NCBI GenBank assembly: GCA_021778515.1
Contig: JAJYCJ010000004.1
Location: forward strand, 7,092 to 71,091
From: Acidobacteriota bacterium
GTDB lineage: Bacteria > Acidobacteriota > UBA4820 > DSQY01
DNA length: 64,000 nt
Direction: 5' to 3'
In this document: positions 1 through 58,363 of the stretch, piece after piece
How positions within the stretch are numbered: the stretch's first letter is position 1
How the letters are laid out: the number at the start of each line of letters is the position of its first letter
Position numbers and translations under genes: made by a program
The notes under the pieces: generated by a model
Databases searched by the model: none
The model's input: only the letters and a program-made list of their open reading frames with translations
What the model was told of the DNA's origin: nothing

Positions 1-974
1 GCGAGCGGCGTGACCAGGAGGCCCGCCTCGGTCTCCACGACCACCTGCCCGACGAGGCCCCGAACGAGGGTCCGCGCGCCCGTCGTGATCACCAGACAGC
101 CCCTGCACTCCTCCATCCGCCCGGGCCCCCACGCGGCGTTTCCCTCCGAATCCTTGGGGAGCAGCGCGTAGAGCGCCGGAAAGGTGCCCACGTCGCTCCA
201 GGGGAAATCGGCGGCCACGACGACGGCCAGCCGGGTCCGCTCCATGACGAGCCGGTCGAACGGGGTCGAGGGCAGGGCCCTGTACGGCTCCGGCTCGGCC
301 CCGTTCAGCCAGGCCTCGGCGGCCTCCCAGTACCCCGGACAGTGGGCGGCCATCTCCTCCCTCAAGGGCCCCAGCGGAAGCAGGAACATACCCGAATTCC
401 ACGACGCGCCGGGTTCGGCGAGGAGGACCTCGGCCCTCTCGCGGTCGGGCTTCTCCACGAAGCGGCTCACCCAGAAGCCTTCCCCCGCGGGAGCCCCCGG
501 CTGGATGTAGCCGTAGGAGGTCTCGGGGCCCGTGGGCCTGATGCCCAGGACGCCCAGCGCTCCGCGATCGCGGCACAGCCCGGCCAGCCGCCGGATCGTC
601 GCACCGAAGGCCGCGGTGTCCGGGACGTGGTGGTCCGAGGGGAGAACCAGCAGCAACCCTTCAGGCCCCGCCTTCGACCAGGCCCGCGCTGCGGCGAGGG
701 CCACGGCCGCCCCCGTGTTCCGGGCCGCGGGCTCCGAGAGAAAATTCACGCCCGGGGCCGCGCACAAGCCCTCCAGCGCCGCCGGACCCACCGCCGTGAG
801 AGATTCAGGCTCCAGCGTGAGGGCCCTCTCCACGCAGGCACCGTACAAGGCCCCCAGGGGGCCCATGGGGATGAAGGGCTTGGGGCGCGCGGGCGAGGAG
901 AGCGGCCAGAGTCGGGTCCCCGACCCTCCCGCCAGAATGGCCACGTGAAGGCGCGCCCCGCGATCCGCATTCAC
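1..974 (-). CDS. manC: Mannose-1-phosphate guanylyltransferase (GDP-mannose pyrophosphorylase), partial; C-terminus lies beyond the window start
   Basis: Minus-strand translation from the GTG at 972-974 gives VNADRGARLHVAILAGGSGTRLWPLSSPARPKPF..., the nucleotidyltransferase G-rich loop (LAGGxGTRLWPLS). The frame stays open to position 1, so the ORF is absent from the provided table because it runs off the edge. A TGA 21 nt upstream in frame makes the GTG the first possible start. Confidence 0.6.
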   Translation of the reverse strand, partial: MNADRGARLHVAILAGGSGTRLWPLSSPARPKPFIPMGPLGALYGACVERALTLEPESLTAVGPAALEGLCAAPGVNFLSEPAARNTGAAVALAAARAWSKAGPEGLLLVLPSDHHVPDTAAFGATIRRLAGLCRDRGALGVLGIRPTGPETSYGYIQPGAPAGEGFWVSRFVEKPDRERAEVLLAEPGASWNSGMFLLPLGPLREEMAAHCPGYWEAAEAWLNGAEPEPYRALPSTPFDRLVMERTRLAVVVAADFPWSDVGTFPALYALLPKDSEGNAAWGPGRMEECRGCLVITTGARTLVRGLVGQVVVETEAGLLVTPL

Positions 975-1029
975 TGCATTCCCCTCCGCATGATTCCGAG
1001 CTCCGGCTCCTTCATGGTACGCCTGGATG

Positions 1030-1533
1030 CTACTTCAGGACGAACCGGTCGGCTTCCACCGGGAGCGATCCCCCCAGGTACTCCAGGAGCAGGCGCACGC
1101 GGTCCTTGGAGGGCATGGCCTCGAGGACCGTCCCCTCCATGCCGGCGAAGACGCCCGCTTGAAACCGCACGCGCTGGCCCACTTGGAAGGCGGGGTCGGG
1201 ATCCGGGCGGAGGTAGCCGCGCCCGCCCTCGCGCTCCCGCCAGTGCTCGACGAGCTCCGGCTCCACGCAGGCGAGCTGTTCGCCGAAGGTGAGCGGTCTG
1301 AGTATCCCCGGAAAATAGCGAACCCTCGCGAGCTCCACCTGCGGCGACAGCAGGACGAAGAGGTAGCCGGGGAAGAGCGGCTGGGGCGAGGAGCCCGTGT
1401 ACCGGTTCTTCACCCTGGGGCAGTAGCCCTCGAACCCCTCCTCCCCGAGAAACACCAGGGCCATCTGCTCCTTGCGGGGTTTGGTGGCCAGAACGGCCCA
1501 GACCCGCCTGGCGCTCGACAGGTCCGCCAGCAT
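1030..1533 (-). CDS. NusG-paralog transcription antiterminator (UpxY/LoaP-like; NGN + KOW domains)
   Basis: 167 aa. WAVLATKPRKEQ matches the N-terminal NGN domain, and the C-terminus is KOW-like (GQRVRFQAGVFAGMEGTVLE). Its ATG is directly adjacent to the DegT stop. Specialised NusG paralogs are typically embedded in polysaccharide clusters. Confidence 0.6.
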   Translation of the reverse strand: MLADLSSARRVWAVLATKPRKEQMALVFLGEEGFEGYCPRVKNRYTGSSPQPLFPGYLFVLLSPQVELARVRYFPGILRPLTFGEQLACVEPELVEHWREREGGRGYLRPDPDPAFQVGQRVRFQAGVFAGMEGTVLEAMPSKDRVRLLLEYLGGSLPVEADRFVLK

Positions 1534-2697
1534 CTAGCCTCTTCCAGCGTAGAAGCTCCGGATCCCCTCGCACACCTCTTGCACCTCGGCCTCCCTCAGC
1601 TCGGCGAAGATGGGCAGGGCCAGGACCTCTGCGGCCGCGCGCTCGGTGTGGGGAAGCGCGCCCTGTGCGTAGCCGAGGAACCGGAAGCAGGGCTGGAGGT
1701 GGAGAGGTACGGGGTAGTAGATCATGGAGCCGATCTGCCGGTCGGCGAGGTGCGCCTTCAGCTCGTCCCGCCGCGCCGCGCGGATGACGAACTGATGGTA
1801 GATGTGGGTATAGCCGTCGGGAGCCTGGGGCGCCTGCACCGAGGGGATGCCCTTAAGGCCGCGCCGGTAGAGCTCCGCCACCTCGGCGCGCCGCCGGTTC
1901 CAGGCGTCCACGTGGGGCAGCTTGACCCGCAGGACCGCCGCCTGAACCTCGTCCAGCCGGGAGTTGTAGCCGATCTCCTCGTGGAGGTAGCGCTCCCTGC
2001 TCCCGTGCACGCGGAGCATGGCCAGGCGGTCGGCGAGGGCCGCATCGTCCGTGGTCAGCAGGCCGCCGTCCCCCGCCCCGCCCCAGTTCTTGGTGGGAAA
2101 GAAGGAGAAGGCGCCGAGGTGGCCCAGGGTGCCGACGCGCCGGCCCTTGTACAGGGCCCCGTAGGCCTGGCAGGCGTCCTCGAAGACCTTGAGGCCGTGA
2201 GAGTCCGCCACGGCGTTGAGGGCGTCCATGTCGGCCGGCAGGCCGTAGAGGTGAACCGGCAGCAGCACGCGGATGGGCACGCCCGTGGCGCGGTGCACGG
2301 GGAGCCCCTCGGGGCCCTTGCGGCACTCCTCCTCCAGGAAGCGCTTCACCGCGGAGGGGGAGAGGTTGAAGGTCTCCGGGTCGATCTCGGCGAAGAAGGG
2401 CCGCCCGCCCGCGTTGTGGATGGCGCCGGCCGTGGCGAAGAAGGTGAAGGAGGTGGTCAGCACGCCTTCGCCCTGTTTGAGTCCCAGGGCCCTGAGGCCG
2501 AGGAGGAGGGCGTCCGTGCCCGAGGCCACTCCCACCGCGTGGGCCGCCGCGAGATGGGCCGCGGCCTCCTCTTCCAGAGCCTTGCCGTGTTTTCCGAGGA
2601 TGAAGTGCTGGGTTTCGAAGACATCCTGAAGGGCCCGCTGCACCGCTTCGCGGATCTGGGCGTGCTGCCTCGTCAGGTCTAACACCGGTACGCTCAT
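1534..2697 (-). CDS. DegT/DnrJ/EryC1/StrS family PLP-dependent sugar aminotransferase
   Basis: Family-typical N-terminus VPVLDLTRQH...FILGK, and GSGTDAL plus a lysine-containing motif (FSFFPTKNWGG). The second ATG at 2697 has an AAGGAG RBS 9 nt upstream; the table ORF starts at 2724. Confidence 0.85.
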   Translation of the reverse strand: MSVPVLDLTRQHAQIREAVQRALQDVFETQHFILGKHGKALEEEAAAHLAAAHAVGVASGTDALLLGLRALGLKQGEGVLTTSFTFFATAGAIHNAGGRPFFAEIDPETFNLSPSAVKRFLEEECRKGPEGLPVHRATGVPIRVLLPVHLYGLPADMDALNAVADSHGLKVFEDACQAYGALYKGRRVGTLGHLGAFSFFPTKNWGGAGDGGLLTTDDAALADRLAMLRVHGSRERYLHEEIGYNSRLDEVQAAVLRVKLPHVDAWNRRRAEVAELYRRGLKGIPSVQAPQAPDGYTHIYHQFVIRAARRDELKAHLADRQIGSMIYYPVPLHLQPCFRFLGYAQGALPHTERAAAEVLALPIFAELREAEVQEVCEGIRSFYAGRG

Positions 2698-2822
2698 GGG
2701 CTTAGGCTCCTTCGACAAAGGCATGCTTATAGCACAGCGCCCCCCGCGAGTAAAGCATTTCAGGCCCCTTTGAGGGGCCGGCGGGGCCGTGGTATGGTTG
2801 GGGCAGAATCGGAGGCTCGATC

Positions 2823-3902
2823 ATGGATTCCACGGTCTTTCAGAAGCTTCTCATCAGCGCCATCCAGAGGGGCGCTTCGGACGTCCACCTGCAGACCGGC
2901 CACCCCCCGATGATGCGGGTCAACGGCGAGCTCCTGGAGGTCAAGTACCACCCCCTGGAGCCATCGGAGACGCGGGCCATCGCCGAGGAGATCATCGCCC
3001 ACACCTACCAGAAGCCCGACGTGGCCATGCTCTCGGAGCTGGACGTCTCCTACGGCATCGAGGGCCAGGGCCGCTTCCGCGCCAACATCTTCCGCCAGAG
3101 GGGCAGCCTGAGCATCGTCCTGCGGGTGATCCCCATTACCATCCAGAGCTTCGCCCAGCTCCACCTGCCGCCCGTCCTGGAGCAGATCGCCAACCTGCGG
3201 CGGGGGCTGGTGATCGTCTCCGGCGCCACGGGAAACGGCAAGTCCACCACCCTGGCCGCCATGGTGGAGTTCATCAACGAGACGCGAAGGGCCCACGTGG
3301 TGACCATCGAGGATCCCATCGAGTTCCTGTTCCGCCACAAGATGTCCATCGTGAGCCAGCGGGAGCTGGGCAGCGACACCCCCTCCTACGCCTCCGCCCT
3401 CCAGGCCGTCCTTCGCCAGGACCCGGACGTGATCCTCATCGGCGAGATGCGCGACCTGGAGACCGTGGAGACCGCCCTCAAGGCCGCCGAGACGGGGCAC
3501 CTGGTGCTGGCCTCGCTCCACACCACGGACTGCGTCAAGAGCATCTCCCGCCTCATCGGCATGTTTCCGCCGGACCAGGAGACCAGCATTCGCGGACGGC
3601 TGGCCGACGCCCTCATGGCCATCGTCTCCCTGCGGCTCATGCCCCAGAAGGGCGTGCTCGGGAGGATTCCGGCCGTGGAGGTGCTCCGCGTGACGCGGAC
3701 CATCCAGGAGTGCATCCGGGACCCCTCCAAGACCTCCGACATTCCCGAGTACATGGCCAAGGGCGCGGAGATGTACGGCATGCAGACCTTCGACCTGCAT
3801 CTGCTCCAGCTCGTCAAGGAGGGCAAGGTCGAGCTGGAGGCCGCCAAGCTGGCCTCCAGCAATCCCGCCGAGCTCGAGCGCGCCATCCTCATGGAGGGGT
3901 GA
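2823..3902 (+). CDS. pilT: Type IV pilus retraction ATPase PilT
   Basis: 359 aa. Walker A GATGNGKSTT, a PilT/GspE-family secretion ATPase fold (RFRANIFRQRG, VILIGEMRD), and a PilT-like C-terminus. GGAGG RBS upstream. Confidence 0.9.
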   Translation: MDSTVFQKLLISAIQRGASDVHLQTGHPPMMRVNGELLEVKYHPLEPSETRAIAEEIIAHTYQKPDVAMLSELDVSYGIEGQGRFRANIFRQRGSLSIVLRVIPITIQSFAQLHLPPVLEQIANLRRGLVIVSGATGNGKSTTLAAMVEFINETRRAHVVTIEDPIEFLFRHKMSIVSQRELGSDTPSYASALQAVLRQDPDVILIGEMRDLETVETALKAAETGHLVLASLHTTDCVKSISRLIGMFPPDQETSIRGRLADALMAIVSLRLMPQKGVLGRIPAVEVLRVTRTIQECIRDPSKTSDIPEYMAKGAEMYGMQTFDLHLLQLVKEGKVELEAAKLASSNPAELERAILMEG

Positions 3903-3922
3903 GGCGGGGGGCGTGCAACGCG

Positions 3923-3946
3923 AGGCGACAGTCGGTGCTCTGTCGC
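3923..3946 (+). terminator. Stem-loop downstream of pilT (ggcgacag...ctgtcgcc), no U-tract
   Basis: An 8-bp perfect inverted repeat 20 nt after the pilT stop. It is not followed by a T-run, so it is a hairpin or attenuator rather than a classic intrinsic terminator. Confidence 0.3.
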
Positions 3947-4045
3947 CGGCCGCCGGCAGCCTCCATCCCCCACCCCGCACAGCCCCGCGCATCCCACCAC
4001 CGCGAAGGACACCTGTCCAAAATAGGCCGTCTTGCCGACTCCAGA

Positions 4046-4420
4046 CCACGGCTAGGTCTGGGCCGCGCCAAGGGCGCGCCGCTGGGGGCCTGGTCCGGGC
4101 GCGTCCACGCGAGCGTGGCCGTGCTCCGTCCGCAGGCCCTCAGCCGCCCTTCGGGCGCCAGTCCCAGCCTCATCTAATGTGAACCGTCCCCCCACCCTCC
4201 ACAGGTGCGCCGGCGGCGACGGACCTCCTGCTTCGTCAGCTTTCGGCGTCCGCATCCTCAGCGTACATTCAGTACGCTTCCGGTGCGGCCGCCTCACCTT
4301 CCTCTCATGAGGCCCATCGGCGCCGGGACGCGCCTTCCTCCGCTTCGCTCCGGAAGGCAAACCCCCTCACATGCGAGCTGAAATGTTTTGGACAACCATG
4401 ACCGCGAAGGACCCCGAGGC
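4046..4420. repeat. Copy A of a ~350-bp structured repeat element (inverted relative to copy B at 43787-44156)
   Basis: The reverse complement of 4046-4360 aligns at ~85-90% identity with 43841-44156, e.g. tgccttccggagcgaagcggaggaaggcgcgtcccggcgccgatgg versus tgccttccgaagcaaagcggaggaaggcgcgttccggcgccgatgg. Weaker similarity continues to ~4420 / ~43787. An internal hairpin agcgtac-NNNNN-gtacgct keeps its stem while the loop differs (tgaat versus tccct). Table ORFs 4052..4360(-) and 43832..44062(+) are translations of this repeat. Confidence 0.7.
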
Positions 4421-4870
4421 TGCGGGCGGTTCTTGCCCTGCCCGCGGCTCCCGCCTCGCCCCCCTTGCAGGGCGGCCTTCTCCTGTGCTACACCATCCCC
4501 ATTCCCTGGCAGAGCGACACCTGAGCGCGCATTTCATCGGACCGGACGGTAAGGGCCAATGGGGACGAGCGGCCGCGCCGGCGAGAAGCCGCGCCGGCTG
4601 GGGCCCGTGCCGACCGGAGGGGGGGAGTGCAAGGTACAGAGGGGATGCTCCGGGGGGATTCCGGAAGACAACAGGAGCGTGAAGCGCCGAGGTTCGGCCC
4701 GGCTGGGTACGCGCCGAACTGCGTCCGCGGCCGTCCTTCCCTTGCATCCGGCGCCGGGTCCGGGCCTCCCCGCTTTCGGGCCGGCTTCCCGGGGGCCGAT
4801 CTCGTGACCTCCCGCCGCCCATCCGTGCCCCTCTTCGCGGGGAGGAAGGGGCCCCCGCCGCAACGCGGCG

Positions 4871-5079
4871 ACACGTGCGCAGAAATCGCCAAGTCGCCGC
4901 GTCCACTTCGTGAAAGGCGCTCAAAGATCGCCAGGTGTACGCCTCACCTTGGTGATAGGTGCGCGAGAATCGCCGAGTCACCGCTTCAACTTGGTGATAG
5001 TTGCACAGAAATCGCTAAGTTACCGCCTCCACTCGGCGAAACCTGAGCACGAATCGCCGGGTGTAGGCCTGCGCGCGGG
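4871..5079. repeat. Degenerate 42-bp tandem repeat, about 4.8 copies (consensus roughly GCrCAGAAATCGCCrAGTcACCGCyTCmACTTGGTGATAGgt)
   Basis: Units at 4877-4918, 4919-4960, 4961-5002, 5003-5044 and a partial unit 5045-5079. Pairwise identity is ~70-75% with a conserved AATCGCC core. The array lies ~190 nt upstream of the CDS at 5272. Confidence 0.75.
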
Positions 5080-5271
5080 AAAAGCAGCGCATGAAGGCGC
5101 GGATCAACGCTTCGGAAGGGGGAGAACCCGGCCCGAAGCGCGGGAATCGGTCGTGGTCGGTCCGTTATGGGGGCTCGGCGGACCGGATGAGGCACGAGAA
5201 GCGTTGGGAGGCCTTCCGGGGCCGGGGATGGTCCCCGGCGAGGGGGCCAGTTGTGCACAGAGGAGGGACAC

Positions 5272-5946
5272 ATGCGGTTGCCGAGTCAGAGCTTGAGCGC
5301 GGAGACCCTGTTGGAGACCTTCGGCGTCTATCACGCCACGCGGGTGGAGGCGGACCCGGACAAGAAGGAGATGGCGGACGCCTGGACCAAGGCGCAGGAG
5401 CGCCTGAACGAGCGGCTGAAGATGCACAAGGCCGCCCAGAAGGCCACCATGCGGGCCATGGCCGTGCGCGACGCGGAGGACGAGGCCTTCGACGACGCGG
5501 TCAAGGCCTTCGCGCTCGCCGTCCTGAGCAAGGTGAGCAACAGCCGGAAGGCGCCGCTCTTCCGCAAGTACTTCCCCGACGGCATGTCCGCCGTGGTCAC
5601 CGCCCCCCTGGAGGCGGAGCTGCAGAAGGCGGGCGTGATCCTCTCCAAGCTGTCCGAGGAGGAGGACGAGAGCCTCAAGGCCTTCAGCGGCACCCTCTCC
5701 ACCGCCATGGGCAACCTCGCCACCGCCATGGACGCCCACCGCGCCGCCCTCGACGCCGAGCTGCAGGCCTACGGCATGCTCACCACGGAGAAGGTGAACT
5801 GGCTCGATGCCTACAAGCGCAACTACCGCCAGCTCACCAGCCTCTACTTCAAGGACCCCAAAAAGGCCGACGGCTACTTCAAGCCCGCCCCCAAAGCCAA
5901 GAAAGGCAACGGGGACGAGACGCCCCCACCGGCCGCCGCGAACTGA
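5272..5946 (+). CDS. Hypothetical alpha-helical protein (no recognisable domain)
   Basis: The ORF is host-like in GC (~65%) and predicted all-helical with a Lys-rich tail. The ATG at 5272 (MRLPSQ) is preferred over the table start at 5251. It is followed by a hairpin plus short T-run near 5999-6042. Confidence 0.55.
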   Translation: MRLPSQSLSAETLLETFGVYHATRVEADPDKKEMADAWTKAQERLNERLKMHKAAQKATMRAMAVRDAEDEAFDDAVKAFALAVLSKVSNSRKAPLFRKYFPDGMSAVVTAPLEAELQKAGVILSKLSEEEDESLKAFSGTLSTAMGNLATAMDAHRAALDAELQAYGMLTTEKVNWLDAYKRNYRQLTSLYFKDPKKADGYFKPAPKAKKGNGDETPPPAAAN

Positions 5947-5998
5947 TGGAGACAGAGAAACAGAGAATCAGCGAAACAGGGAGGTAACACGCCCATCC

Positions 5999-6042
5999 AC
6001 CCCGCCCGCCCGGTCCGACCCCGGGCGGCGGGGGGCTTTTCG
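5999..6042 (+). terminator. Putative intrinsic terminator after the 5272-5946 CDS
   Basis: GC-rich imperfect hairpin cccgcccgcccgg-tccgacc-ccgggcggcgggg followed by gcttttcg. Confidence 0.3.
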
Positions 6043-6289
6043 AGGAAAAATGACCCAAATTCACGACAGGGAGGTAGGCGGTGAGAAAGGAAGAAGCGAA
6101 AGGGGCTAATAAGAATGAGCCATGTGGAACAGACGTCGTGCGGAGTTCGATATTTCCAAGTAGTGCAAAGACACGACAATTGACTCCATTCGCAGGCATA
6201 TTGGAAGGCGGGGGCATCCGAGCCCCCAAGGAGACCAAGGCCTCACATTGGAGCTAGACTGAAGACCTTAGAGCGAGGAGAGTTCTCCG

Positions 6290-9200
6290 GTGGACATTCA
6301 ATCCGCGACCTACCGTGGCTATCGAAGGCAAGCCCTATATGTTCTCTGGCGGTTGCTCACAGACGAAGATGGACATTCGCGTCTATATCGTCCAGAAGGA
6401 GAAGAGGATCTCGCAGTTCTCGATTTGAAAGAAACACTTCTGGAGGCCGTACAAGTCAAGGACTATAGTGCACCGCTGTCACTTTCGGATCTCAAGCCTC
6501 GGAGCCCGGATGGTTTCTTTGCTAGGATGAAGCAGCGACTTCACGATCATCCAGGGTGCCGACACATTCTAGCCAGCTTTGGGCGGATCGGCCCCGAACT
6601 GACTTACGCGATTGCGGCGCAAGGCTCTCTTCGGAATACCGTCGCCGCTCGACTCCATGATAGGAACCCCACAATCACATTGGCTGAAGGCGAGCGCCTG
6701 TTAGGTGAGCTAAATGATAATCTGCAATTCCTCGACGAGTCCACTATGTCAGCGGATATCAAAGCCGCGTTGGCCGACACGATGGCAGGCGGCCATTACG
6801 AAAGCACGATGAATCTGCTTATGTATTGGGTCTTTGAATCGGCCGAGCGGAAGAGCGTCCTGACAAGGGCGAGTCTTATCAAACAGATTACTCGTATAGC
6901 CGAGTATCTGGGCGTCCTTCGCGACCATAATAGGGAATGGATGACCGTGATCAGGCCACTGGAGAACAAGGCCCTCAGTCAAGATGAGTTCGACAGGCTG
7001 CGTGAAGAGTACCGCCGTGGTGCCCAGGCACGCTGGGAACACATACTTGCAGATTTGGACCACCCGCGCAAGGCGCGGTTGTCCGAGTTGCATAAAAAGA
7101 TCTCCCGTCGCTCTGTAGTAGTGGTAAGAGGTGCCTCTGGCCAGGGCAAATCATCCTTGGCGTTTCGATACATGCAAGACTATGTGCCGGACGGGCTGCG
7201 CTTCAACGTCTGCGTGGTCGAGGATAGACTTCATGCCTTAAGCATCGCCAATGCGTTGCGGGGCCACGTTGCGCGGCTTCAGCTAAGGGCAGTAGTTCTG
7301 ATAGACCTATCACCCATTGATGCGGGGTGGGTAGATTTAGCACGTGAACTCGTAAGGGGTGGAATGAAGGTGCTTGTCACGGTGAGGGAAGAAGACTTTC
7401 ATCGGGCCGCATCCATAGTGTCTGACCTGGAGTACGAGGAAGTGGTGCTGGATTCGCTTACGAAAGACGAAGCTGAGCCGATTTTCAAATCCCTTACAGC
7501 CGGAGAGCGCTTGCCCTCAACTCTCGACTTTGAGGACATTTGGTGCCGATTTACTTTGACGGAAACCGGCCCGCTTATGGAGTTTACACACCTAATAACC
7601 GAAGGGAGGACGCTCACCGAGAAGATTTCCGGGCAGATAGTACGTCTTCAAAAGGAATCCAACGACTTCAGATGTATCAACGGTATCACTGCCGCTCACT
7701 TAAGGCTGTTGGCACTTGCGGCCATAGGCAACGCCGCAGAATGCCGCATGAGCCTTAAGAGCATGTGCGGGCAGTGTGGATTGGATCCCCTTACCAATCC
7801 ACTGGCGCCTTTTGAGGGTGAGTTCCTTTTGCGGCAGGCGGAATACGGAGGCAAGACAGTGGTCGTCGGTCTGCACCCGCTTCGTTCTAAGGCGGTAGTT
7901 AGCGCTCTATTCGCGGGTTGCGAAGAAGATTGGGGGCGGTATGCAGCTAGCTGTCTGGAGCATGTACTCGACGAAGATATCGAAAGGTTCATGTTGCACT
8001 CCTTTCTGGGGCATCCAGCATGTAGCGTGTCATTGGAAGCAGCGGTCCACGAATTGAAGCTGCGTTCCTGGACGCAGGCGGGCGGCCTGGCTCGGGCCCT
8101 GGTCTGGGAAGGAGTAAATCGCTATGAAAGGGAGAATCATGAACAACTTGAGGCCGCCGTTGCTAAACACGACACGGCGTGGTGGTTCCTTTGCGATTCT
8201 CTCGTGGGCCTGGAAAGGGTCAACATAATAGAGCGAAGAAGAGAAATGGAGGAGATATCCCAGAGAGAACTGCCTTGGTTCGAGCTCACTGACAAGAAAA
8301 GAGTCTTTGATCCGCTACGCGGCTGGGCTCAGCAGATCACGCCACCATCGGGGCAACCTTCGTCAGCGTTGGATTGGATCATGCTGGGCGAACTTGCGTA
8401 CTGGATCGGTAGCAATAGCATTAGCGGTTTGCTCCACCGGGCCCTGCTGGATGTGCTTCCGACGGTTCTTCCGACAAACCTCACCATTGAGGAGTTGGGA
8501 CTGTTCATCTCTGGTCGTTATCACATGCGGGATTCCGCCTTTTTGGATTGGCATGCCCAGAAATGTGCGGAGCTCTCAGCTCGGTTCTTGCGTGAGACGA
8601 ATTCGACCTACCTAGTTGACCAGGCGGACGAAGTAAAGGTGTACTTCCCTGTGTTTTCTACGCATCATTCTACCAACAACGGGAGTGATGATAGCGACTT
8701 GCATGCCGCGGCCGTCAGGCGCATCGATTTGCTCCGGAAGCTATTTCCACAACGGGCGACGTATGGCTCGCAGGGACTTGGCATCGAGGCAGTGTCCGCA
8801 TTCTATCCCCATGACCCCACATACAAGGCGATTCCAGCCAAGAATTTGCCACCGGAAAGGGGCGTTCGACTCAATCGCATCTTCCTGAACCTCGTGGCAT
8901 TTAGGCTCCAGCGCGCCGACTCATGGAGGTCCTACGCTGAGGCGCACTTCCAACTGCGGAGCAGTATCTGTGCTTGCTTCAGGGCCCTCTACCGTGCATG
9001 GGAGTTGCTCCTTGATAGGGCAACGGACAGGAGCCGAGTTGCTCGCAAGTTGCCTATCGAAGAAGTGAACCAAGTCTCGCAGCAGTCAAAAATGCCTATG
9101 CTCCCATGCAACGCGGTCGATGAATGGGGCTTTGCATCGGAATTGCAGGGGACGGCCACGGATGAGATGGGTGGAGCCCCTGTTGATGGACGTGTCCCGC

Positions 9201-10459
9201 ATATAGCTGTTCGCGGAAGCCTAAAACGCTTCCAGCCATGGCATGAGATATGGAGGGATTACGAATCAAGTGCGAGGAATGTTGTTAGCGGGATAGGCGA
9301 TACGACGGCCTCTCTGCTGAATGGAGAAGAACCGGCTGGCCACGACTCCAGGAGCCCTGATCGTGGGCGACTACTTCTGTACAATTTGGCGAGAGCGTGG
9401 GAGGCATTAACGGGAATGCAACGTGAGTATGGGCATTGGTTTGGGGTTCATGAAGACCGCGGAAAGCTCGCCGAACTGCAGGACCACGAAGCGCGAACCT
9501 ACCGGCATCTGTGGGCCATTGCCAGTGAGGTGATTTATCCGAGAGTAAAGGATAGCCAACATAGTATCAGCGGCATCGAAAGAGAAATCTCTGTTCGACG
9601 GAGAAACTTTCTGGCTAGCCTGTCCAGAGAACTAAGTGCGGTGCTTGTAGGCGTAGGAAGCCATCGCATAGAGTGTGGACCACTAAATATCGATGGAAAG
9701 AGGTGCCTCGTGGTTGTTTGTGACCATGAATCCGCTGCCAGCATGGAGGCTCAACGAGAGGCTGTGGTGCTTGCTATTTGGCGTGCAACACGGAATGGCG
9801 GGTGGCGCCCGCTGGAATGGACTCCAATTAGCGTTGAATGGCCGCACGTCTTCGTGACGCACATTCTTCGAGGGAGGGCGCTTGCTAGTGCGGGTACCTT
9901 TCTTTCATCGTTCGTGCTTTTCGGCATTGAGAAGGACTTCGAGATCAAGGCTCACCACTTGGCAGACCAGCCAGTACCGGAGAGAGATTACTTGGCGACT
10001 GGCGTTATCCTGTGGGAGTTGCCGGTGCTATCCGGTCTTGGAGCTTTCGTGGGAAGTGTCAGCGCCTTCATGCTGACTGTCATGCAGGCCTATTCCATTC
10101 TTGCCTTAGCGCAGGAGAAGGGCCTATCGAGTGAGGACCTGGAGGCAGGCCTCGAATCGTACGGAAGCGAAGTTCGTTTGTTGCGCGAAACTGTGGTGAA
10201 TGCATTTGAAGAGTTGAAGGGACTGATGCAGGGCATGGATGCGCAGAAAGGCCTAGAGCAACTACGCGGAACGGAGTGGTCGTTGCGGCTGGAATCGCTT
10301 TGCCGAGCTCCCTTGTTACTTCCTCCCTTCGAAGATGACCGTGCTATTGTTACCGTGGCTGGCCTCGCAGAGTGGCTGGAACAATGTGAAAGAAGCCTCT
10401 CTGGAATTCGGACACTAGGTCAAGAAGTCGCGGATCTTGCCACCAAGAGAAGCGCATGA
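6290..10459 (+). CDS. Giant (1389 aa) STAND-like P-loop NTPase with an N-terminal PD-(D/E)xK-like nuclease motif; candidate Avs-type antiviral defence protein
   Basis: GTG start with a GAGGAG RBS 8 nt upstream. Walker A VVVRGASGQGKSSLAF at ~aa 270, a hhhhD Walker-B-like VVLIDLSP ~60 aa later, and a ~1000-aa alpha-helical C-terminal region. The N-terminus has a D...(Q)xK arrangement (VLDLKETLLEAVQVK) reminiscent of Mrr or restriction-endonuclease folds. GC is ~52% against ~67% in the flanks. Confidence 0.8.
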   Translation: MDIQSATYRGYRRQALYVLWRLLTDEDGHSRLYRPEGEEDLAVLDLKETLLEAVQVKDYSAPLSLSDLKPRSPDGFFARMKQRLHDHPGCRHILASFGRIGPELTYAIAAQGSLRNTVAARLHDRNPTITLAEGERLLGELNDNLQFLDESTMSADIKAALADTMAGGHYESTMNLLMYWVFESAERKSVLTRASLIKQITRIAEYLGVLRDHNREWMTVIRPLENKALSQDEFDRLREEYRRGAQARWEHILADLDHPRKARLSELHKKISRRSVVVVRGASGQGKSSLAFRYMQDYVPDGLRFNVCVVEDRLHALSIANALRGHVARLQLRAVVLIDLSPIDAGWVDLARELVRGGMKVLVTVREEDFHRAASIVSDLEYEEVVLDSLTKDEAEPIFKSLTAGERLPSTLDFEDIWCRFTLTETGPLMEFTHLITEGRTLTEKISGQIVRLQKESNDFRCINGITAAHLRLLALAAIGNAAECRMSLKSMCGQCGLDPLTNPLAPFEGEFLLRQAEYGGKTVVVGLHPLRSKAVVSALFAGCEEDWGRYAASCLEHVLDEDIERFMLHSFLGHPACSVSLEAAVHELKLRSWTQAGGLARALVWEGVNRYERENHEQLEAAVAKHDTAWWFLCDSLVGLERVNIIERRREMEEISQRELPWFELTDKKRVFDPLRGWAQQITPPSGQPSSALDWIMLGELAYWIGSNSISGLLHRALLDVLPTVLPTNLTIEELGLFISGRYHMRDSAFLDWHAQKCAELSARFLRETNSTYLVDQADEVKVYFPVFSTHHSTNNGSDDSDLHAAAVRRIDLLRKLFPQRATYGSQGLGIEAVSAFYPHDPTYKAIPAKNLPPERGVRLNRIFLNLVAFRLQRADSWRSYAEAHFQLRSSICACFRALYRAWELLLDRATDRSRVARKLPIEEVNQVSQQSKMPMLPCNAVDEWGFASELQGTATDEMGGAPVDGRVPHIAVRGSLKRFQPWHEIWRDYESSARNVVSGIGDTTASLLNGEEPAGHDSRSPDRGRLLLYNLARAWEALTGMQREYGHWFGVHEDRGKLAELQDHEARTYRHLWAIASEVIYPRVKDSQHSISGIEREISVRRRNFLASLSRELSAVLVGVGSHRIECGPLNIDGKRCLVVVCDHESAASMEAQREAVVLAIWRATRNGGWRPLEWTPISVEWPHVFVTHILRGRALASAGTFLSSFVLFGIEKDFEIKAHHLADQPVPERDYLATGVILWELPVLSGLGAFVGSVSAFMLTVMQAYSILALAQEKGLSSEDLEAGLESYGSEVRLLRETVVNAFEELKGLMQGMDAQKGLEQLRGTEWSLRLESLCRAPLLLPPFEDDRAIVTVAGLAEWLEQCERSLSGIRTLGQEVADLATKRSA

Positions 10460-10552
10460 GCCGCGGCCTGCCGACATGCCTTCTGTGATAGGTGCAGTCC
10501 TTGTGAATATTTGGGGGTAGATCGTGCATTGGCACATTGGGTTCATTCTGCT

Positions 10553-10690
10553 CGCTGCGTGGTGAGCCCTTCTTTGCGTCTCGCGTCTCGCCCTCGCGCG
10601 GCACACCTTCAGAACCCCGCGCCAGGGCCTCCAAAGCACGGGCCAGTCCCGCATCGTCCAGCTCGTGGTGGGTGACGAAACGAATGGAGG
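10553..10690 (-). pseudogene. Decayed duplicate of the 3' end (~25 codons plus 3' flank) of the threonine-aldolase gene at 12726-13757
   Basis: The minus-strand translation [24 protein letters not shown] matches [26 protein letters not shown] of the intact gene. Nucleotide identity to 12672-12805 is ~80%, with a 1-nt indel that removes the stop. Table ORF 10350..10703(-) is this fragment fused to junk. Confidence 0.7.
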
Positions 10691-10818
10691 GAAAAGGGGT
10701 CACCCATTAGTCGGCCCCTGTCAACAGGCGGACTTCCATCTTGGCGGCCTTTGCCCTTAGCCGCACTCCTCTTGCCCTTTGCACAGGGCCAGGCGGGGAG
10801 GGAGGGTCAGGGGAGGGA

Positions 10819-10878
10819 GGGTCAAGTCTTCACTGTTAGCGTCTCGGATCACCAGCCCTGAAGACCTGGCCGCGATTT
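10819..10878. repeat. Direct repeat R2 (~57 bp), second copy at 12408-12470
   Basis: caagtcttcactgttagcgtctcggatcaccagccctgaagacctggccgcgatt versus caagtcttcactgtgagcgtctcggaccactaaccctaaagacctggccccgatt, about 85% identity. The first copy is preceded by a tandem gggagggagggtca x2. Confidence 0.7.
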
Positions 10879-10989
10879 TGCGCTCCTCGACCCCTTACCC
10901 TGTCCTGCCTTCCCCCGCGTCCTTCGCGTCTCCTTGGTGAATTCTTCTGCCCCTGTGCGTGTTTCTCAGTCTGAAAGGGAGAGAACACC

Positions 10990-11442
10990 ATGGGAACGTG
11001 CAGCATCCGTCACGAAGTGGGGATCAAGGCGTCGCCGGAGGCGGTCTACGGGGCGCTGACGGAGGTCGAGACGCTGGCGGCCTGGTGGACCTCGGACACC
11101 CGCGGCGAGGGCTCGACGGTCGGGGGCGTGCTGGAGTTCTGGTTCGGCGGCTTCTGCCAGGCCTTCGAGGTGGTGGAGCTTCGGCCCGGAGGGCTCGTCC
11201 GCTGGAAGGCCACCCGGAAGGAGACCCTGGAGGAGTGGGCGGGGACCGAGGTCAGTTTCGCCCTGAGCGCCGACGAAGCCCAGTGCTGGGTGGAGTTCGC
11301 CCATTCGGGATGGCGCGAGGACACGGAGTTCTTCGCCCACTGCTCGACCAAGTGGGCGGTCTTCATGCTGAGCCTCAAGGACCTCTTGGAAACGGGCAAG
11401 GGCCGTCCCGCGCCCGACGACGTGCCGATCAACCACGATTGA
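10990..11442 (+). CDS. SRPBCC-superfamily protein (AHSA1 / activator-of-Hsp90-ATPase-like)
   Basis: 150 aa. The N-terminus IRHEVGIKASPEAVYGALTEVETLAAWW and the overall pattern match the AHSA1/START-like SRPBCC fold. Confidence 0.75.
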   Translation: MGTCSIRHEVGIKASPEAVYGALTEVETLAAWWTSDTRGEGSTVGGVLEFWFGGFCQAFEVVELRPGGLVRWKATRKETLEEWAGTEVSFALSADEAQCWVEFAHSGWREDTEFFAHCSTKWAVFMLSLKDLLETGKGRPAPDDVPINHD

Positions 11443-11617
11443 GCGGATGGAGGCCTTTGCGGCGTGATCGCGTGATCAAGAGATCAAAGGATCGGGGCGG
11501 GCCTTCGAAGAACCTCCCGCCCCCTGTTTTTCCACTGGCTTGCCCACCTGCTCGCCTCGAGACTGGGGAGGCGCGCCTGAGGGCAAAACGCAAAGGGCTC
11601 TGCGGGAGGTTGGAGCG

Positions 11618-12373
11618 ATGAGCGGGTTCGCGGCGACGAAATTCGAGTTCCGGCACCGTTTCTGGTTCATCTTCGCCATCTTCTTGATCGCGTACGAACT
11701 CGGCCACTTCTTTCCGGGCAACGCCGGCGCGGTCCTCGTGGGCCGCTTCGTCCCGAAGGGCTCACCCCTCTTCCCGTTCGGGCTGCACGCGCTCTTCGGG
11801 GTCGCGGCCCTGGTGGTTCTGGCGGGCGCTGCCCTGCGCACGTGGGGCACGGCCTACCTGAGCGCGGGGGTCATGACGGACCGCCGGCTGCACTCGGAGA
11901 GGCTCACGGCGGACGGGCCCTTCCGCTTCGTCCGAAACCCCCTCTACATCGGGCTGGTCCTGATGGCCGCAGGCCTGAGCGCGACGACCGACGTCCCGGG
12001 CGGGGTCGTGCTAGTTGTTCTCATGGTTCTCTTCGTCCTGCGTCTCGCCCTGCGGGAGGAGACCGGGCTGGCCGAGGCCCAGGGAGAGGCGTACGAGGCC
12101 TACCGGCGCCGCGTGCGGCGCTTCCTGCCATCGCTCCGGCCCCGGCTTCCAGCGTCCGGGGCCGCGCCCCTGTGGCGCCAGGCGTTCGTCGCGGAGTTCA
12201 TGGTGTGGTCCTTCGGCATCGCCCTGGTCGCCCTGGCCGTCAGCCTGAACGGGCGCCTCTTCTGGGAGGTCTTCGCCGTGGGGCTGGTCTCCGGGATGAT
12301 CACGTATTCCTTCCAGCGCCGGCGGACCCGGCCGGCCCCGAAGGCGGGAGGCGAAGAGCCCGACGCCGGGTGA
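11618..12373 (+). CDS. Isoprenylcysteine carboxyl methyltransferase (ICMT/PEMT) family membrane methyltransferase
   Basis: It has multiple TM helices and the family signature LTADGPFRFVRNPLYIGLVL (GPF/Y-x3-R-N/H-P-x-Y). The ATG at 11618 has a GGGAGG RBS 8 nt upstream; the table ORF starts further upstream at 11540. Confidence 0.75.
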   Translation: MSGFAATKFEFRHRFWFIFAIFLIAYELGHFFPGNAGAVLVGRFVPKGSPLFPFGLHALFGVAALVVLAGAALRTWGTAYLSAGVMTDRRLHSERLTADGPFRFVRNPLYIGLVLMAAGLSATTDVPGGVVLVVLMVLFVLRLALREETGLAEAQGEAYEAYRRRVRRFLPSLRPRLPASGAAPLWRQAFVAEFMVWSFGIALVALAVSLNGRLFWEVFAVGLVSGMITYSFQRRRTRPAPKAGGEEPDAG

Positions 12374-12407
12374 GGGAATAGGAAGAGCCAAGGGGGCCGT
12401 ACTGGTC

Positions 12408-12470
12408 CGGGATCAAGTCTTCACTGTGAGCGTCTCGGACCACTAACCCTAAAGACCTGGCCCCGATTCT
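12408..12470. repeat. Direct repeat R2' (partner of 10819-10878)
   Basis: See R2. Confidence 0.7.
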
Positions 12471-12510
12471 ATTTGGTTAGGGCGAATGCTCTCCTTCGAA
12501 GGCCCGCCCT

Positions 12511-12545
12511 CGTCCTCATCTCGGCATCTCCTCATCTCCTCATCT
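12511..12545. repeat. 8-bp tandem microsatellite CATCTCCT x4
   Basis: catctcgg catctcct catctcct catctcga. Confidence 0.6.
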
Positions 12546-12725
12546 CGACCTTCCTCCGTGGCCTCCGTGCCCTCCGTGGTAAATTCCATTTTCATGGGCC
12601 CGAATCGCGCTCTGGAGAGCGCTCCTACAGGGCTTTCGAGAGCCGTGTTTTCCTCTGTGTCCTCTGCGTCTCTGTGGTGAATCCGTTTCCTCGCGTCCCG
12701 CGTCTCGCCCCCGCGCGGCACCCCT

Positions 12726-13757
<1,032 letters not shown>

Positions 13758-13800
13758 GGGGCACCTCCATGAGGGGTCAGTATACGGGAGAGGCGAGAGG

Positions 13801-13880
13801 CGATGAAGGGATTGGGCGATTGAGCGATTGGGCGATAAGCGATTGAGCGATTGAGCAATTGAGCGATGAAGCGAAGGGCG
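13801..13880. repeat. Tandem 8-bp repeat GCGATTGA (about 7 units, degenerate at the ends)
   Basis: gggattgg gcgattga gcgattgg gcgataa gcgattga gcgattga gcaattga gcgatgaa. It lies in the divergent intergenic region between ltaE and the ABC transporter. The same unit recurs at 39864-39913 and 55387-55420. Confidence 0.75.
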
Positions 13881-34948: not shown

Positions 34949-35170
34949 GCGGTGATCTCCCGCACGGGAGTATATCCAAAAGCCTCCGGCCCGGCAAACC
35001 GAGGGCAGTTTGGTGGAGGGTGGAGGGTGGAGGAGCCGTCGTCCGAAGGGCGGCCGCGGGCATGCGAATGGAGCGCGGCCGCGCTCACTTGGACGCGCCC
35101 GGGCCAGGCCTCCAGCGCCGCGCCAACGGCGCGCCGCTTGTGCTACACTAAGCGGGTTCGGAGGAGCGCA

Positions 35171-43786: not shown

Positions 43787-44156
43787 GGACCATCGTGTCC
43801 CATGGCTTTCTAAAATGGCTCCAGACCTCCCTTGAGCGGTCTGCCTTCCGAAGCAAAGCGGAGGAAGGCGCGTTCCGGCGCCGATGGCCCTCATGCGAGG
43901 AAGGTGAGGCGACCACACCGCAAGCGTACTCCCTGTACGCTGAGGATGTGGGCGCCGAAAGCTGACGAAGCAGGAGGTCCGTCGCCGCCGGCGCAAACAC
44001 GGACGGTGGGGGTCAACGGCACACACCAGGAAAGCCGGGCCTGGCGCCCAAAGGGCGGCTGAGGGCCTGAGGACGGAGCGCGGCCACGCTGGCGTGGGCG
44101 CGCCCGGCTCAGGGCCCCAGCGCCGCGCCAAAGGCGCGGCCGAGGCCCGGCCACGG
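43787..44156. repeat. Copy B of the ~350-bp structured repeat element (partner of 4046-4420, inverted)
   Basis: See copy A. It lies immediately downstream of the rpoC terminator hairpin on the minus strand. Confidence 0.7.
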
Positions 44157-56242: not shown

Positions 56243-56319
56243 TGGCAGGCGAGGAGGGATTCGAACCCCCAACATCCGGTTTTGGAGACCGGCGCTCTAC
56301 CAATTGGAGCTACTCGCCT
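56243..56319 (-). tRNA. tRNA-Trp (anticodon CCA), 3' CCA encoded
   Basis: Minus strand: aggcgagtagctccaattggtagagcgccggtctccaaaaccggatgttgggggttcgaatccctcctcgcctgcca. It has a 7-bp acceptor stem, an anticodon loop cuCCAaa, and a T-loop ggttcgaatcc. Confidence 0.9.
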
Positions 56320-56328
56320 GCAATCCGG

Positions 56329-56478
56329 TCACTTCACCTCTTTGTGAACTTGGTGGGAGCGGCAGAAGGGGCAGTACTTCTTCACCTCCAGCTTTCCCTG
56401 CTGTTTCTTCTTGTTCTTGGTCGTCGTGTAGTTGCGCCGCTTGCACGCGCCGCACTGCAGGTGGATGATATCGCGCAT
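56329..56478 (-). CDS. rpmG: 50S ribosomal protein L33
   Basis: Minus-strand translation [49 protein letters not shown] (49 aa, C4 zinc ribbon). Too short to be listed in the ORF table. Confidence 0.9.
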
Positions 56479-56481
56479 CGC

Positions 56482-57681
<1,200 letters not shown>

Positions 57682-57772
57682 CCGATCCGCCTCCGGCAAC
57701 CCGCCCTTCCGGCTGCCCCGCCGCCCTTCGCCTTCTCTCCCCCGGCTCTTCGGTCCCTACTGCGGGGGGGTG

Positions 57773-57848
<76 letters not shown>

Positions 57849-57962
57849 CGAAATGCCGCGATTAGGAGATGGGGAGATCGGGAGACCAGGAGGTCGCCTA
57901 TCGGCGAACCGGCCATCCCCATCTTCCTCACCTCGCCATCTCCTCATCACCTCATCACAACC

Positions 57963-58039
57963 TGGAGCGGGCGACGGGATTCGAACCCGCGACCCTCAGC
58001 TTGGAAGGCTGATGCTCTACCAACTGAGCTACACCCGCC
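57963..58039 (-). tRNA. tRNA-Gly (anticodon TCC), CCA encoded
   Basis: Minus strand: ggcgggtgtagctcagttggtagagcatcagccttccaagctgagggtcgcgggttcgaatcccgtcgcccgctcca, with anticodon loop ctTCCaa. Confidence 0.9.
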
Positions 58040-58130
58040 TGACTCCTGAAACAGGGGACATGGAACCCGGAGCAAGAGGACGAACCTCTATTCCCGTCCC
58101 TTTATCCCTTGTCTCCGATCTCTTTCAAAG

Positions 58131-58219
<89 letters not shown>

Positions 58220-58288
58220 GTGGAGCTTTCAGGGTCACAACCCGGTTTCCGGTCAACATGGCCTAGCCGGGAATTCTCGCTTCCCGCC

Positions 58289-58363
58289 TGGAGCCGATGA
58301 GAGGACTTGAACCTCCAACCAACGGATTACAGATCCGCTGCTCTACCGTTGAGCTACATCGGC
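58289..58363 (-). tRNA. tRNA-Thr (anticodon TGT), CCA encoded
   Basis: Minus strand: gccgatgtagctcaacggtagagcagcggatctgtaatccgttggttggaggttcaagtcctctcatcggctcca, with anticodon loop tcTGTaa. Confidence 0.85.

Follow-up and report, generated by a model that had tools for sequence, protein, structure and literature searches.

Antiviral STAND (Avs) proteins are NLR-like immune receptors of bacteria, in which an effector, a STAND nucleoside triphosphatase (NTPase), and a sensor follow one another from the N-terminus to the C-terminus. In Avs3 and Avs7 (Gao et al. 2022; Lee et al. 2026), the effector is an N-terminal Cap4 nuclease, and the Cap4 domains of SeAvs3 and SeAvs7 were reported to tetramerize on activation (PMC13581612). 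The effector is SIR2 in Avs5, PNP in Avs6, and AlbA_2 in Avs9 and SAMD9 (PMC12680541), and the Avs5 NTPase is annotated as nSTAND3 (PMC12931631). LmuA, the effector of the Lamassu system, is also a Cap4-type nuclease. In V. cholerae LmuA, the catalytic lysine is K57, and the nuclease is activated by tetramerization (PMC12663957). Herein, a gene with a similar layout is described from a 64,000-nt stretch of an Acidobacteriota genome (contig JAJYCJ010000004.1). This whole stretch is called the window, and coordinates are on its scale unless another genome is named. The gene encodes, in one polypeptide, a predicted LmuA/Cap4-type nuclease, a STAND NTPase, and a large C-terminal sensor-like domain. 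With a probability of roughly three in four, we consider it to be a stand-alone Avs-type immune receptor that was horizontally acquired.

The diversity of such proteins was surveyed by Lee et al. (Nature 2026, PMC13581612), who report 589 STAND clades, 198 of them defense-associated, and 684 sensor structural clusters. According to the same report, defense and non-defense clades are interspersed, non-TPR sensors exist, and the 14 Avs families with identified triggers sense phage proteins. The families characterized there, Avs7-24, are mostly from Enterobacteriaceae.

A first-pass annotation of the window, made from the sequence alone, had read the gene as Avs-like. This reading was supported, as an LmuA/Cap4-type nuclease, a STAND NTPase, and a large C-terminal domain were all found, in the effector-NTPase-sensor order of Avs proteins. 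None of the observations named there as refuting it was made: no housekeeping homologue turned up, the relatives lack the gene at this locus, its composition is foreign, and the model has an NTPase fold.

Gene and three-module architecture

The proposed single gene of 1389 amino acids (aa) was recovered as one intact, uninterrupted open reading frame (ORF) of 1389 codons (Table 1). Its GTG start at 6290 is credible because the N-terminus VDIQSATYRGYR aligns with the start of the homologues, where the family consensus is M...DASATYRGYR. The identical protein (P0001) is present on 14 contigs from metagenome assemblies and metagenome-assembled genomes, including GCA_027388615.1 and GCA_027388695.1.

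The N-terminal stretch had been thought compatible with a PD-(D/E/Q)xK nuclease, and profile and fold matches to LmuA and Cap4 agree with this, with DLAVLDLKETLLEAVQVK located at aa 40-57. The PADLOC profile of LmuA matches aa 6-271 with an E value of 5.8e-8. When 34 diverse family members were scanned with profiles at E<=0.01, LmuA matched 20 of them (best 8e-15), and Pfam Cap4_nuclease matched six weakly. The AlphaFold2 model of aa 1-620, built with 103 sequences, has a mean predicted local distance difference test (pLDDT) score of 91.7. It shows a helix at 6-24, strands at 31-35, 41-45, and 50-57, a helix at 76-86, and a strand at 91-96, which is the canonical PD-(D/E)xK core; D40 begins strand beta2, and Q55-V-K57 ends strand beta3. 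Conservation was measured in an alignment of 103 full-length relatives. P35, E36, E39, D40, Q55, and K57 are each conserved in at least 98% (D40, Q55, and K57 in 99%), and E52 in 94%. The suggested comparison of an N-terminal structure prediction with known nucleases was performed, and in a Foldseek search of PDB the core fold matched LmuA (9hr5, 4.8e-5; also 9nxx) and Cap4 (6wam, 1.9e-4).

The central NTPase is assigned to the STAND class by Pfam matches, invariant motifs, and fold matches. Pfam nSTAND_NTPase5 covers aa 240-373 (profile positions 2-140 of 145) with 24 bits against a cut-off of 34 bits, and nSTAND1, nSTAND3, and AAA_16 match as well. Among the 34 members, nSTAND5 matched 31, nSTAND3 26, nSTAND1 12, and nSTAND6 eight. 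None of five scored members reached the 34-bit gathering threshold of nSTAND5 (best 32.3 bits); P0097 and P0112 exceed the nSTAND3 cut-off, and P0097 also that of nSTAND6. The family sits between the curated models PF25199 (nSTAND5), PF20720 (nSTAND3), and PF25201 (nSTAND6) and inside none of them. The pilT-like T2SSE ATPase of the window (2823-3902) also gives a sub-threshold nSTAND_NTPase5 match through its P-loop region (E 4.4e-4), so that weak nSTAND5 matches alone are unspecific.

The motifs of the NTPase are intact. The Walker A sequence GASGQGKS is present as first described, although at aa 281-288 instead of about aa 270. The hhhhD box VVLIDLSP was likewise found, at aa 335-342. In the helical domain, G427-P-L429 shows no or almost no variation among the relatives; R366, which lies after the fourth strand and fits the STAND 'hhhTxR' pattern, is the presumed sensor-1 arginine. 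In the Foldseek search, aa 1-620 matched human SAMD9 (1.3e-8), EcAvs4 (4.4e-8), and EfAvs5 (2.1e-6), and also MalT, CED-4, and NLRP7/9. Within the STAND tree, the Avs5/SAMD9-like part is the one closest to this NTPase, since nSTAND3, the annotation of the Avs5 NTPase, is matched by 26 of the 34 members and since SAMD9 and EfAvs5 are among the fold matches. By sequence, PDB searches with the full protein, the N-terminal 240 aa, and the 103-sequence profile returned P-loop matches alone (UvrA and RNA helicase A), none of which helps to place the family.

The C-terminal part had been described as a very long helical region. It is indeed a large and mostly helical domain, but it is compact, carries two alpha/beta inserts, and has no TPR signature. 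The AlphaFold2 model of aa 591-1389 has a pLDDT of 91.7 and a predicted template modeling score (pTM) of 0.90. No overall fold match was found for this part at E<=0.001 among 350,542 PDB chains released to April 2026 (Foldseek, best 0.26). The sole structural likeness is to four-helix bundles, including the ligand-binding domains of chemoreceptors and histidine kinases, and de novo designs score highest. Avs sensors typically consist of TPR-like alpha-helical repeats; TPR, Sel1, and HEAT repeats gave no Pfam match in the protein. Identity among the relatives is 18-43% in the sensor vs 35-56% in the N-terminal half. W594, W606, W679, P820, R890, P939, D944, and G947 are invariant in the sensor, and K846, N1032, E1067, and W1075 are nearly so.

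Family and distribution

The first-pass annotation could not assign a close family by eye and allowed for a novel variant. The protein does belong to an uncharacterized family, but it is no orphan, as about 400 representative clusters were found. A word-indexed search returned 240 relatives, nearly all of 1350-1430 aa with more than 90% query coverage; the best non-identical one has 48% identity. With the sensor alone as query, an exhaustive HMMER search at E<=1e-3 returned 405 representative clusters. Full-length matches all have the sensor starting at residue 540-620 with the same N-terminal modules attached, and neither effector swapping nor a free-standing sensor was seen among these clusters. 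Shorter matches of about 800-1150 aa were considered as effector-less variants and rejected; they start at an internal Met or Leu (for example, in the GPL-MEF motif), are collinear with the full-length proteins, and are truncated gene calls.

The named sources are Planctomycetota, Verrucomicrobiota, Bacteroidota, Cyanobacteria, and Ktedonobacteraceae (Chloroflexota). Together with the acidobacterial host, the family spans at least six phyla. Plasmids (3 of 72,556 records), phage records (one fragment), and IMG/VR (two loci) rarely hold members. The phage record MT836892.1, an unannotated 8.7-kb 'Bacteriophage sp.' contig from human feces, holds at its positions 5089-6897 a relative of the nuclease and NTPase half only (aa 5-634, 25% identity), which may be a fragment or a variant with another sensor. 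Searches of NCBIfam and PHROGs gave nothing beyond the P-loop, and NCBIfam and Pfam gave no housekeeping family.

Foreign composition and absence of the gene from the locus in relatives

The gene has a G+C content (GC) of 0.545 and a GC at third codon positions (GC3) of 0.578. Seven neighbor genes have a GC of 0.665-0.715 and a GC3 of 0.91-0.96, and the GC of the whole window is 0.652. The contrast noted at first, about 52% in a genome of about 67%, is therefore real, but its size was slightly overstated (54.5% against 65.2% for the window).

The nearest genomes for a comparison of the locus, found by a search with the adjacent ltaE protein, are Acidobacteria. In L014 (isolate DBS2-1.bin89, about 94-95% nucleotide identity), blastn places the counterparts of window 2784-3920 and 12730-13791 only 147 bp apart. 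In L015 (about 72% identity), the counterparts of 14-3902 and 12742-13768 are just 44 bp apart. A block of about 8.8 kb is thus missing at this locus in the two related genomes, where the pilT-like gene abuts ltaE. Junction alignments put the breakpoints right after the pilT stop (~3921) and just 3' of the ltaE stop (~12710), and the variable block is for this reason larger than the STAND gene alone. The low-GC island with a single gene in the first-pass annotation stands as a low-GC STAND cassette; the variable unit is the larger, composite block.

Acquisition and mobility are supported by the GC3 contrast, the empty locus in L014 and L015, the 48% identity of the nearest relative, the spread over at least six phyla, and the homologues on plasmids and in predicted viral contigs.

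Genomic neighbors of homologues

The genes within 10 kb were inspected at 11 loci outside the window, a small sample in which neighbors were classified by Pfam names and not by DefenseFinder. Defense or mobile-element neighbors are clear at five loci and suggestive at two; the remaining four loci have a housekeeping context. At the locus of P0008, an integrase lies directly upstream, with CBASS genes (SAVED, SMODS, E2), HTH-M78, and IS66; the CBASS is a separate neighboring system. The other clear cases hold AbiEii, DUF4365, HNH, and RlaP; HNH, an integrase, a terminase, and a ParB-methylase; SNF2-like and Eco57I-like genes on a replicon of 152 kb that is recorded as a plasmid; and GmrSD with two DNA methylases. 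Of the suggestive loci, one has HTH-M78 and a TIR-pentapeptide protein. The other, in Okeania sp. SIO2C9 (L099), has a HerA-like ATPase (HAS-barrel and DUF87, 6932-8671 of that locus) about 1.3 kb upstream of the STAND homologue. A known defense system combines HerA with DUF4297/Cap4-type nucleases, and the proximity of the HerA-like gene to a Cap4-STAND fusion could be either meaningful or accidental.

For a random gene, the chance of having a defense system within 5 kb is about 1.5% (Lee et al. 2026, PMC13581612). Against this background the enrichment for defense genes is strong, within the small sample and Pfam-name classification given above.

No gene is conserved beside the STAND gene across the homologue loci. 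ORFs of 213-226 aa beside two homologues resemble in size a 224-aa ORF of the window (orf224) and were considered as a conserved partner; this candidate was rejected. All-against-all BLASTP found no similarity among the neighboring ORFs, and the gene is therefore taken as a single-gene system.

Proposed mechanism and alternative explanations

A mechanism can be proposed by analogy with Avs3, Avs4, Avs7, and Lamassu LmuA; what the protein binds, how it oligomerizes, which DNA it cuts, and that the outcome is abortive are all inferred from them. In the uninfected cell, the protein would be a closed, nucleotide-bound, autoinhibited monomer with its Cap4/LmuA-type nuclease inactive. The C-terminal domain of about 800 residues would recognize a ligand specific to infection, for which a conserved phage protein is the likeliest candidate. 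The ligand would open the NTPase module, and ATP-bound protomers would oligomerize, probably into tetramers. The N-terminal nuclease domains would then gather into an active assembly that cleaves double-stranded DNA. Indiscriminate cleavage would halt phage replication with the loss of the cell (abortive infection).

Several observations weigh against a phage-sensing Avs receptor. The Avs1-5 profiles (AVAST I-V, PADLOC-DB 2.0) match neither the window protein at E<=1 nor the 34 members at E<=0.01. Within the block, no integrase, transposase, or other known defense gene was found with Pfam, PADLOC, and PHROGs. Four of the 11 homologue contexts have no defense gene within 10 kb. All homologues are annotated as 'hypothetical protein' except two: one is labeled automatically as 'DNA polymerase III delta prime' and the other as 'nSTAND3 domain-containing NTPase'. 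The family lysine K57 is probably equivalent to K57 of LmuA, a correspondence taken from profile and fold matches and not from a residue-level alignment. In addition, the sensor is not TPR-like, and its conserved polar residues K846, R890, D944, N1032, and E1067 could line a pocket for a small molecule or nucleic acid instead of forming a surface that binds protein.

The last two points lead to an alternative in which the architecture and the suicidal nuclease are the same, while the cue for the sensor is a small molecule, a structure in nucleic acid, or a host factor that is modified or guarded. The main role might then be against plasmids or mobile elements, or in inter-element conflict. The effector is closest to LmuA of Lamassu, which is triggered by DNA ends and replication origins (PMC12663957), and some homologues are carried by plasmids or predicted viral contigs. 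For SeAvs7, Lee et al. report that host factors, EF-Tu among them, can take part in Avs sensing (PMC13581612). The sensor, without a TPR-like signature and with its likeness only to four-helix bundles that include ligand-binding domains, also fits this alternative, as do its invariant charged and polar residues and the AVDEWGF motif. However, the bundle matches are generic, with de novo designs on top, and the conserved residues may equally be structural or make autoinhibitory contacts with the NTPase. The 14 Avs families with known triggers in Lee et al. sense phage proteins. We regard this alternative as unlikely.

A non-immune role or a dead passenger is made unlikely by the conserved catalytic residues, by the foreign composition together with the locus polymorphism, and by the identical ORF from many samples. 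A non-immune STAND protein could be a MalT-like regulator, or a DNA-repair or recombination factor of the mobile block, with a nuclease that acts on specific DNA. The structural matches of the NTPase include MalT, Orc/Cdc6, and AAA+ proteins, four homologues have a context of housekeeping genes only, and the interspersed clades of Lee et al. would allow it. On the other side, there is no DNA-binding helix-turn-helix output domain, and the effector is of the Cap4/LmuA type that serves CBASS, Avs, and Lamassu. The sporadic spread across phyla, the foreign composition, and the empty locus in close relatives also speak against it, as do the lack of a conserved operon partner and of any housekeeping family in NCBIfam and Pfam, and we consider it very improbable. 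An inactive passenger or decaying remnant is hardly to be expected either: translation may be poor at a GC3 of 0.58 vs >0.9 in the host, no integrase is left in the block, and no sigma-70-like promoter was found upstream on the + strand, but that scan used only the sigma-70 consensus of model bacteria, the ORF is uninterrupted over 4.17 kb with all family-invariant residues kept, the Shine-Dalgarno motif is good, and the identical protein occurs on 14 contigs from several samples.

For the Avs-type receptor itself, a more specific proposal is possible, and we make it tentatively, as one that may well prove wrong. The gene could be the founding example of an uncharacterized, unnamed Avs family with an LmuA/Cap4-like nuclease, an NTPase near nSTAND3/5, and a non-TPR sensor of about 800 residues with a fold not seen among solved structures. 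This family would live mainly in environmental phyla (Planctomycetota, Verrucomicrobiota, Cyanobacteria, Chloroflexota, and Acidobacteriota). The Avs triggers mapped so far include terminase, portal, major capsid, tail parts, polymerase, helicase/RecA-type ATPase, SSAP, and JADA; the trigger of the proposed family might fall outside these classes and might perhaps not be a protein.

The inserted block and other features of the window

The block contains a MITE-like repeat (miniature inverted-repeat transposable element), a tandem array, orf224, the STAND cassette, a duplicate of the ltaE 3' end, a 59-nt direct repeat, and genes of SRPBCC/AHSA1-like and PEMT-like proteins (Table 1). Only the STAND cassette is foreign in composition; orf224 and the SRPBCC and PEMT genes have host-like GC3. 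The block is for this reason taken as a composite of at least two events. Its ORFs of 80, 139, 224, 58, 204, and 102 aa have no significant family in Pfam, PADLOC, and PHROGs. The region of orf224 is missing at this locus in the relatives; orf224 is in the inserted block yet outside the STAND system, as it is unlinked to STAND homologues elsewhere.

The decayed duplicate of the ltaE 3' end, first placed at 10553-10690, is real, with slightly different limits, and the low-GC tract stops exactly at it. Two nested pairs of direct repeats, the ltaE 3' end pair outside and the 59-nt pair inside, bracket the SRPBCC-PEMT module. These pairs suggest that the ltaE 3' end, which appears to be recombination-prone, has undergone recombination or integration repeatedly. 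A simple site-specific integration of the STAND cassette at ltaE was considered and rejected, since the duplicate is on the right side of the STAND gene, where it brackets SRPBCC-PEMT and not STAND. The same arrangement implies that the history of the block includes at least two events.

A terminator had been noted upstream of the STAND gene. A hairpin with a short U-tract is present there, but its energy is indistinguishable from that of shuffled sequences and the consensus scan did not call it, so it was rejected as a significant terminator. The tandem array reported at 4871-5079 is also real, with the extent corrected in Table 1. Its unit carries the imperfect palindrome TCGCCAAGT...ACTTGGTGA, and the 42-nt array may be a set of binding sites. 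The assemblies L002 and L006 break inside this array, both beginning about 1265 nt upstream of the STAND gene.

An element of about 380 bp with the terminal inverted repeats TGTCCAAAA ... TTTTGGACA lies at 4013-4396. At least three copies or partial copies occur in the window (4013-4396, 43838-44147, and 35040-35133; 83-85% identity). In the sister genome L014, the element lies elsewhere, between degT and pilT (12314-12703 of that genome), with its orientation reversed. It resembles a MITE-type repeat dispersed in this lineage.

Two further observations concern the rest of the window. At 13799-13874, between ltaE and an ABC-transporter gene, there is an intergenic tandem repeat with 8/16/31-nt periods (GATTGAGC-type, about seven copies). 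At 56243-58363, five tRNA genes lie on the minus strand (Trp; Thr-Gly-Tyr-Thr), unrelated to the STAND gene; such an arrangement occurs near tuf/secE-nusG in many bacteria.

Table 1 Coordinates of the STAND gene, its modules and motifs, and the features of the inserted block.
Feature	Position	Strand	Description
Composite insertion, ~8.8 kb	~3921..12710		Between pilT-like gene (2823-3902) and ltaE 3' end; blastn and junction alignments
Tandem array	4875-5033		3.8 copies of a 42-nt unit, 70% matches; shortly upstream of orf224
orf224	5272..5946	+	224 aa, Lys/Ala/Glu-rich, GC3 0.96; no Pfam, PADLOC, or PHROGs family
GC-rich hairpin after orf224, then CUUUUCG	6000..6046	+	-32.2 kcal/mol, z -1.25 vs shuffles
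Low-GC tract (compositionally foreign STAND cassette)	~6050..10570		GC ~0.47-0.62 in 100-bp windows
Shine-Dalgarno-like motif GAGGAG	6277..6282	+	7 nt upstream of GTG, read from sequence
Nuclease + STAND NTPase + sensor ORF	6290..10459	+	Single 1389-aa reading frame, GTG start
Cap4/LmuA-type PD-(D/E)xK nuclease module	6290..6934	+	aa 1-~215; alpha-beta-beta-beta-alpha-beta core at aa 6-96, then helical part
Predicted nuclease catalytic motif	6392..6460	+	aa 35-57: P35-E36-G-x-E39-D40...E52-x-x-Q55-V-K57; positions invariant or >=91% in 103 relatives
STAND NTPase module	7007..8059	+	aa ~240-590: nucleotide-binding domain, helical domain, winged helix; Pfam and Foldseek
Walker A G281-A-S-G-Q-G-K-S288	7130..7153	+	G281-K287 invariant in 103 sequences
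Walker B strand VVLID339	7292..7306	+	D339 invariant in 103 relatives; strand 335-339 in model
R366-E-E-D369, presumed sensor-1 arginine	7385..7396	+	R366, E368, D369 invariant; after strand 360-366
H529-P-L-R532, winged-helix 'MHD'-like conserved STAND histidine	7874..7885	+	H529, R532 invariant; role inferred from topology
Sensor-like domain	8060..10456	+	aa 591-1389: helical repeats, alpha/beta inserts at ~aa 774-850 and 1123-1206, long-helix bundles; motif A-V-D944-E-W-G947-F
Terminator-like hairpin, weak	10550..10567	+	7 pairs, 90 nt past stop; count of such sites not above shuffles
ltaE 3' duplicate, decayed	10570..10686		ltaE 3' end and 39 nt downstream; 85-90% identical to 12687-12804
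59-nt direct repeat	10819..10877		Partner at 12410-12468, 88% identical
SRPBCC/AHSA1-like gene	10990-11442	+	GC3 host-like; no evident functional link to STAND gene
PEMT-like methyltransferase gene	11618-12373	+	GC3 host-like; no evident functional link to STAND gene

Significance

The gene leaves the general picture of bacterial immunity unchanged, because the fusion of a Cap4 nuclease, a STAND NTPase, and a sensor is already a well-established immune design. Its value lies in documenting a STAND family that is monolithic and well conserved (about 400 representative clusters), with a sensor that is confidently predicted and unlike any solved structure. To our knowledge, no NLR-like receptor has been tested in the phyla of this family. 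[quoted passage not shown]

Comparison with known systems

The gene is outside Avs1-5. It is also not among the families described in the main text of Lee et al.; the family may be one of their unnamed clusters, because their search space, NCBI clustered_nr, contains members. The window sensor is structurally unlike the solved sensors of Avs3, Avs4, Avs5, and SAMD9 (8dgf, 9jap, and 9zj* entries; Foldseek).

In the group of SAMD9/SAMD9L, Avs5, Avs6, and Avs9, the likeness is in the N-terminal half, for which human SAMD9 is the top match and EfAvs5 is also matched. The effectors of this group are unlike the Cap4/LmuA-like nuclease of the window protein, and the SAMD9 and EfAvs5 structures are not matched by its sensor. 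Avs4 shares the nuclease-STAND-sensor layout, and EcAvs4 (8dgf) is among the best matches of aa 1-620, with about 660 aligned columns at about 12% identity. The portal-binding sensor of Avs4 is unlike aa 591-1389, and the Avs4 effector is Mrr-like, not Cap4/LmuA-like.

CBASS Cap4 (6wam), a DUF4297 nuclease joined to SAVED, has the same nuclease fold. The window protein has no SAVED domain, and no CD-NTase (SMODS) gene is present at its locus. Activation by a cyclic oligonucleotide is therefore not expected, and the gene is not a CBASS Cap4.

LmuA of Lamassu (9hr5, 9nxx) is the best profile match of the N-terminal 270 residues and a fold match, and the invariant lysine is numbered 57 in both. 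The genes of LmuB (SMC-like) and LmuC are missing from the block, so the window gene is not a Lamassu system; weak LmuB profile matches in three of the 34 members fall inside the STAND proteins themselves. Here, the STAND NTPase fused to the nuclease would take the place of LmuBC as the scaffold for activation.

From Avs3 and Avs7, the window protein differs in its sensor, which has no TPR solenoid and no PDB match, in the affinity of its NTPase to nSTAND5/3/6, and in its shorter length of about 1390 aa; SeAvs3 is not among the 50 structural matches listed for the N-terminal half. The overall design is the same: an N-terminal Cap4-type nuclease, a STAND NTPase, and a large C-terminal sensor are joined in one polypeptide, and, as in Avs3 and Avs7, the nuclease would be expected to tetramerize in response to the ligand.

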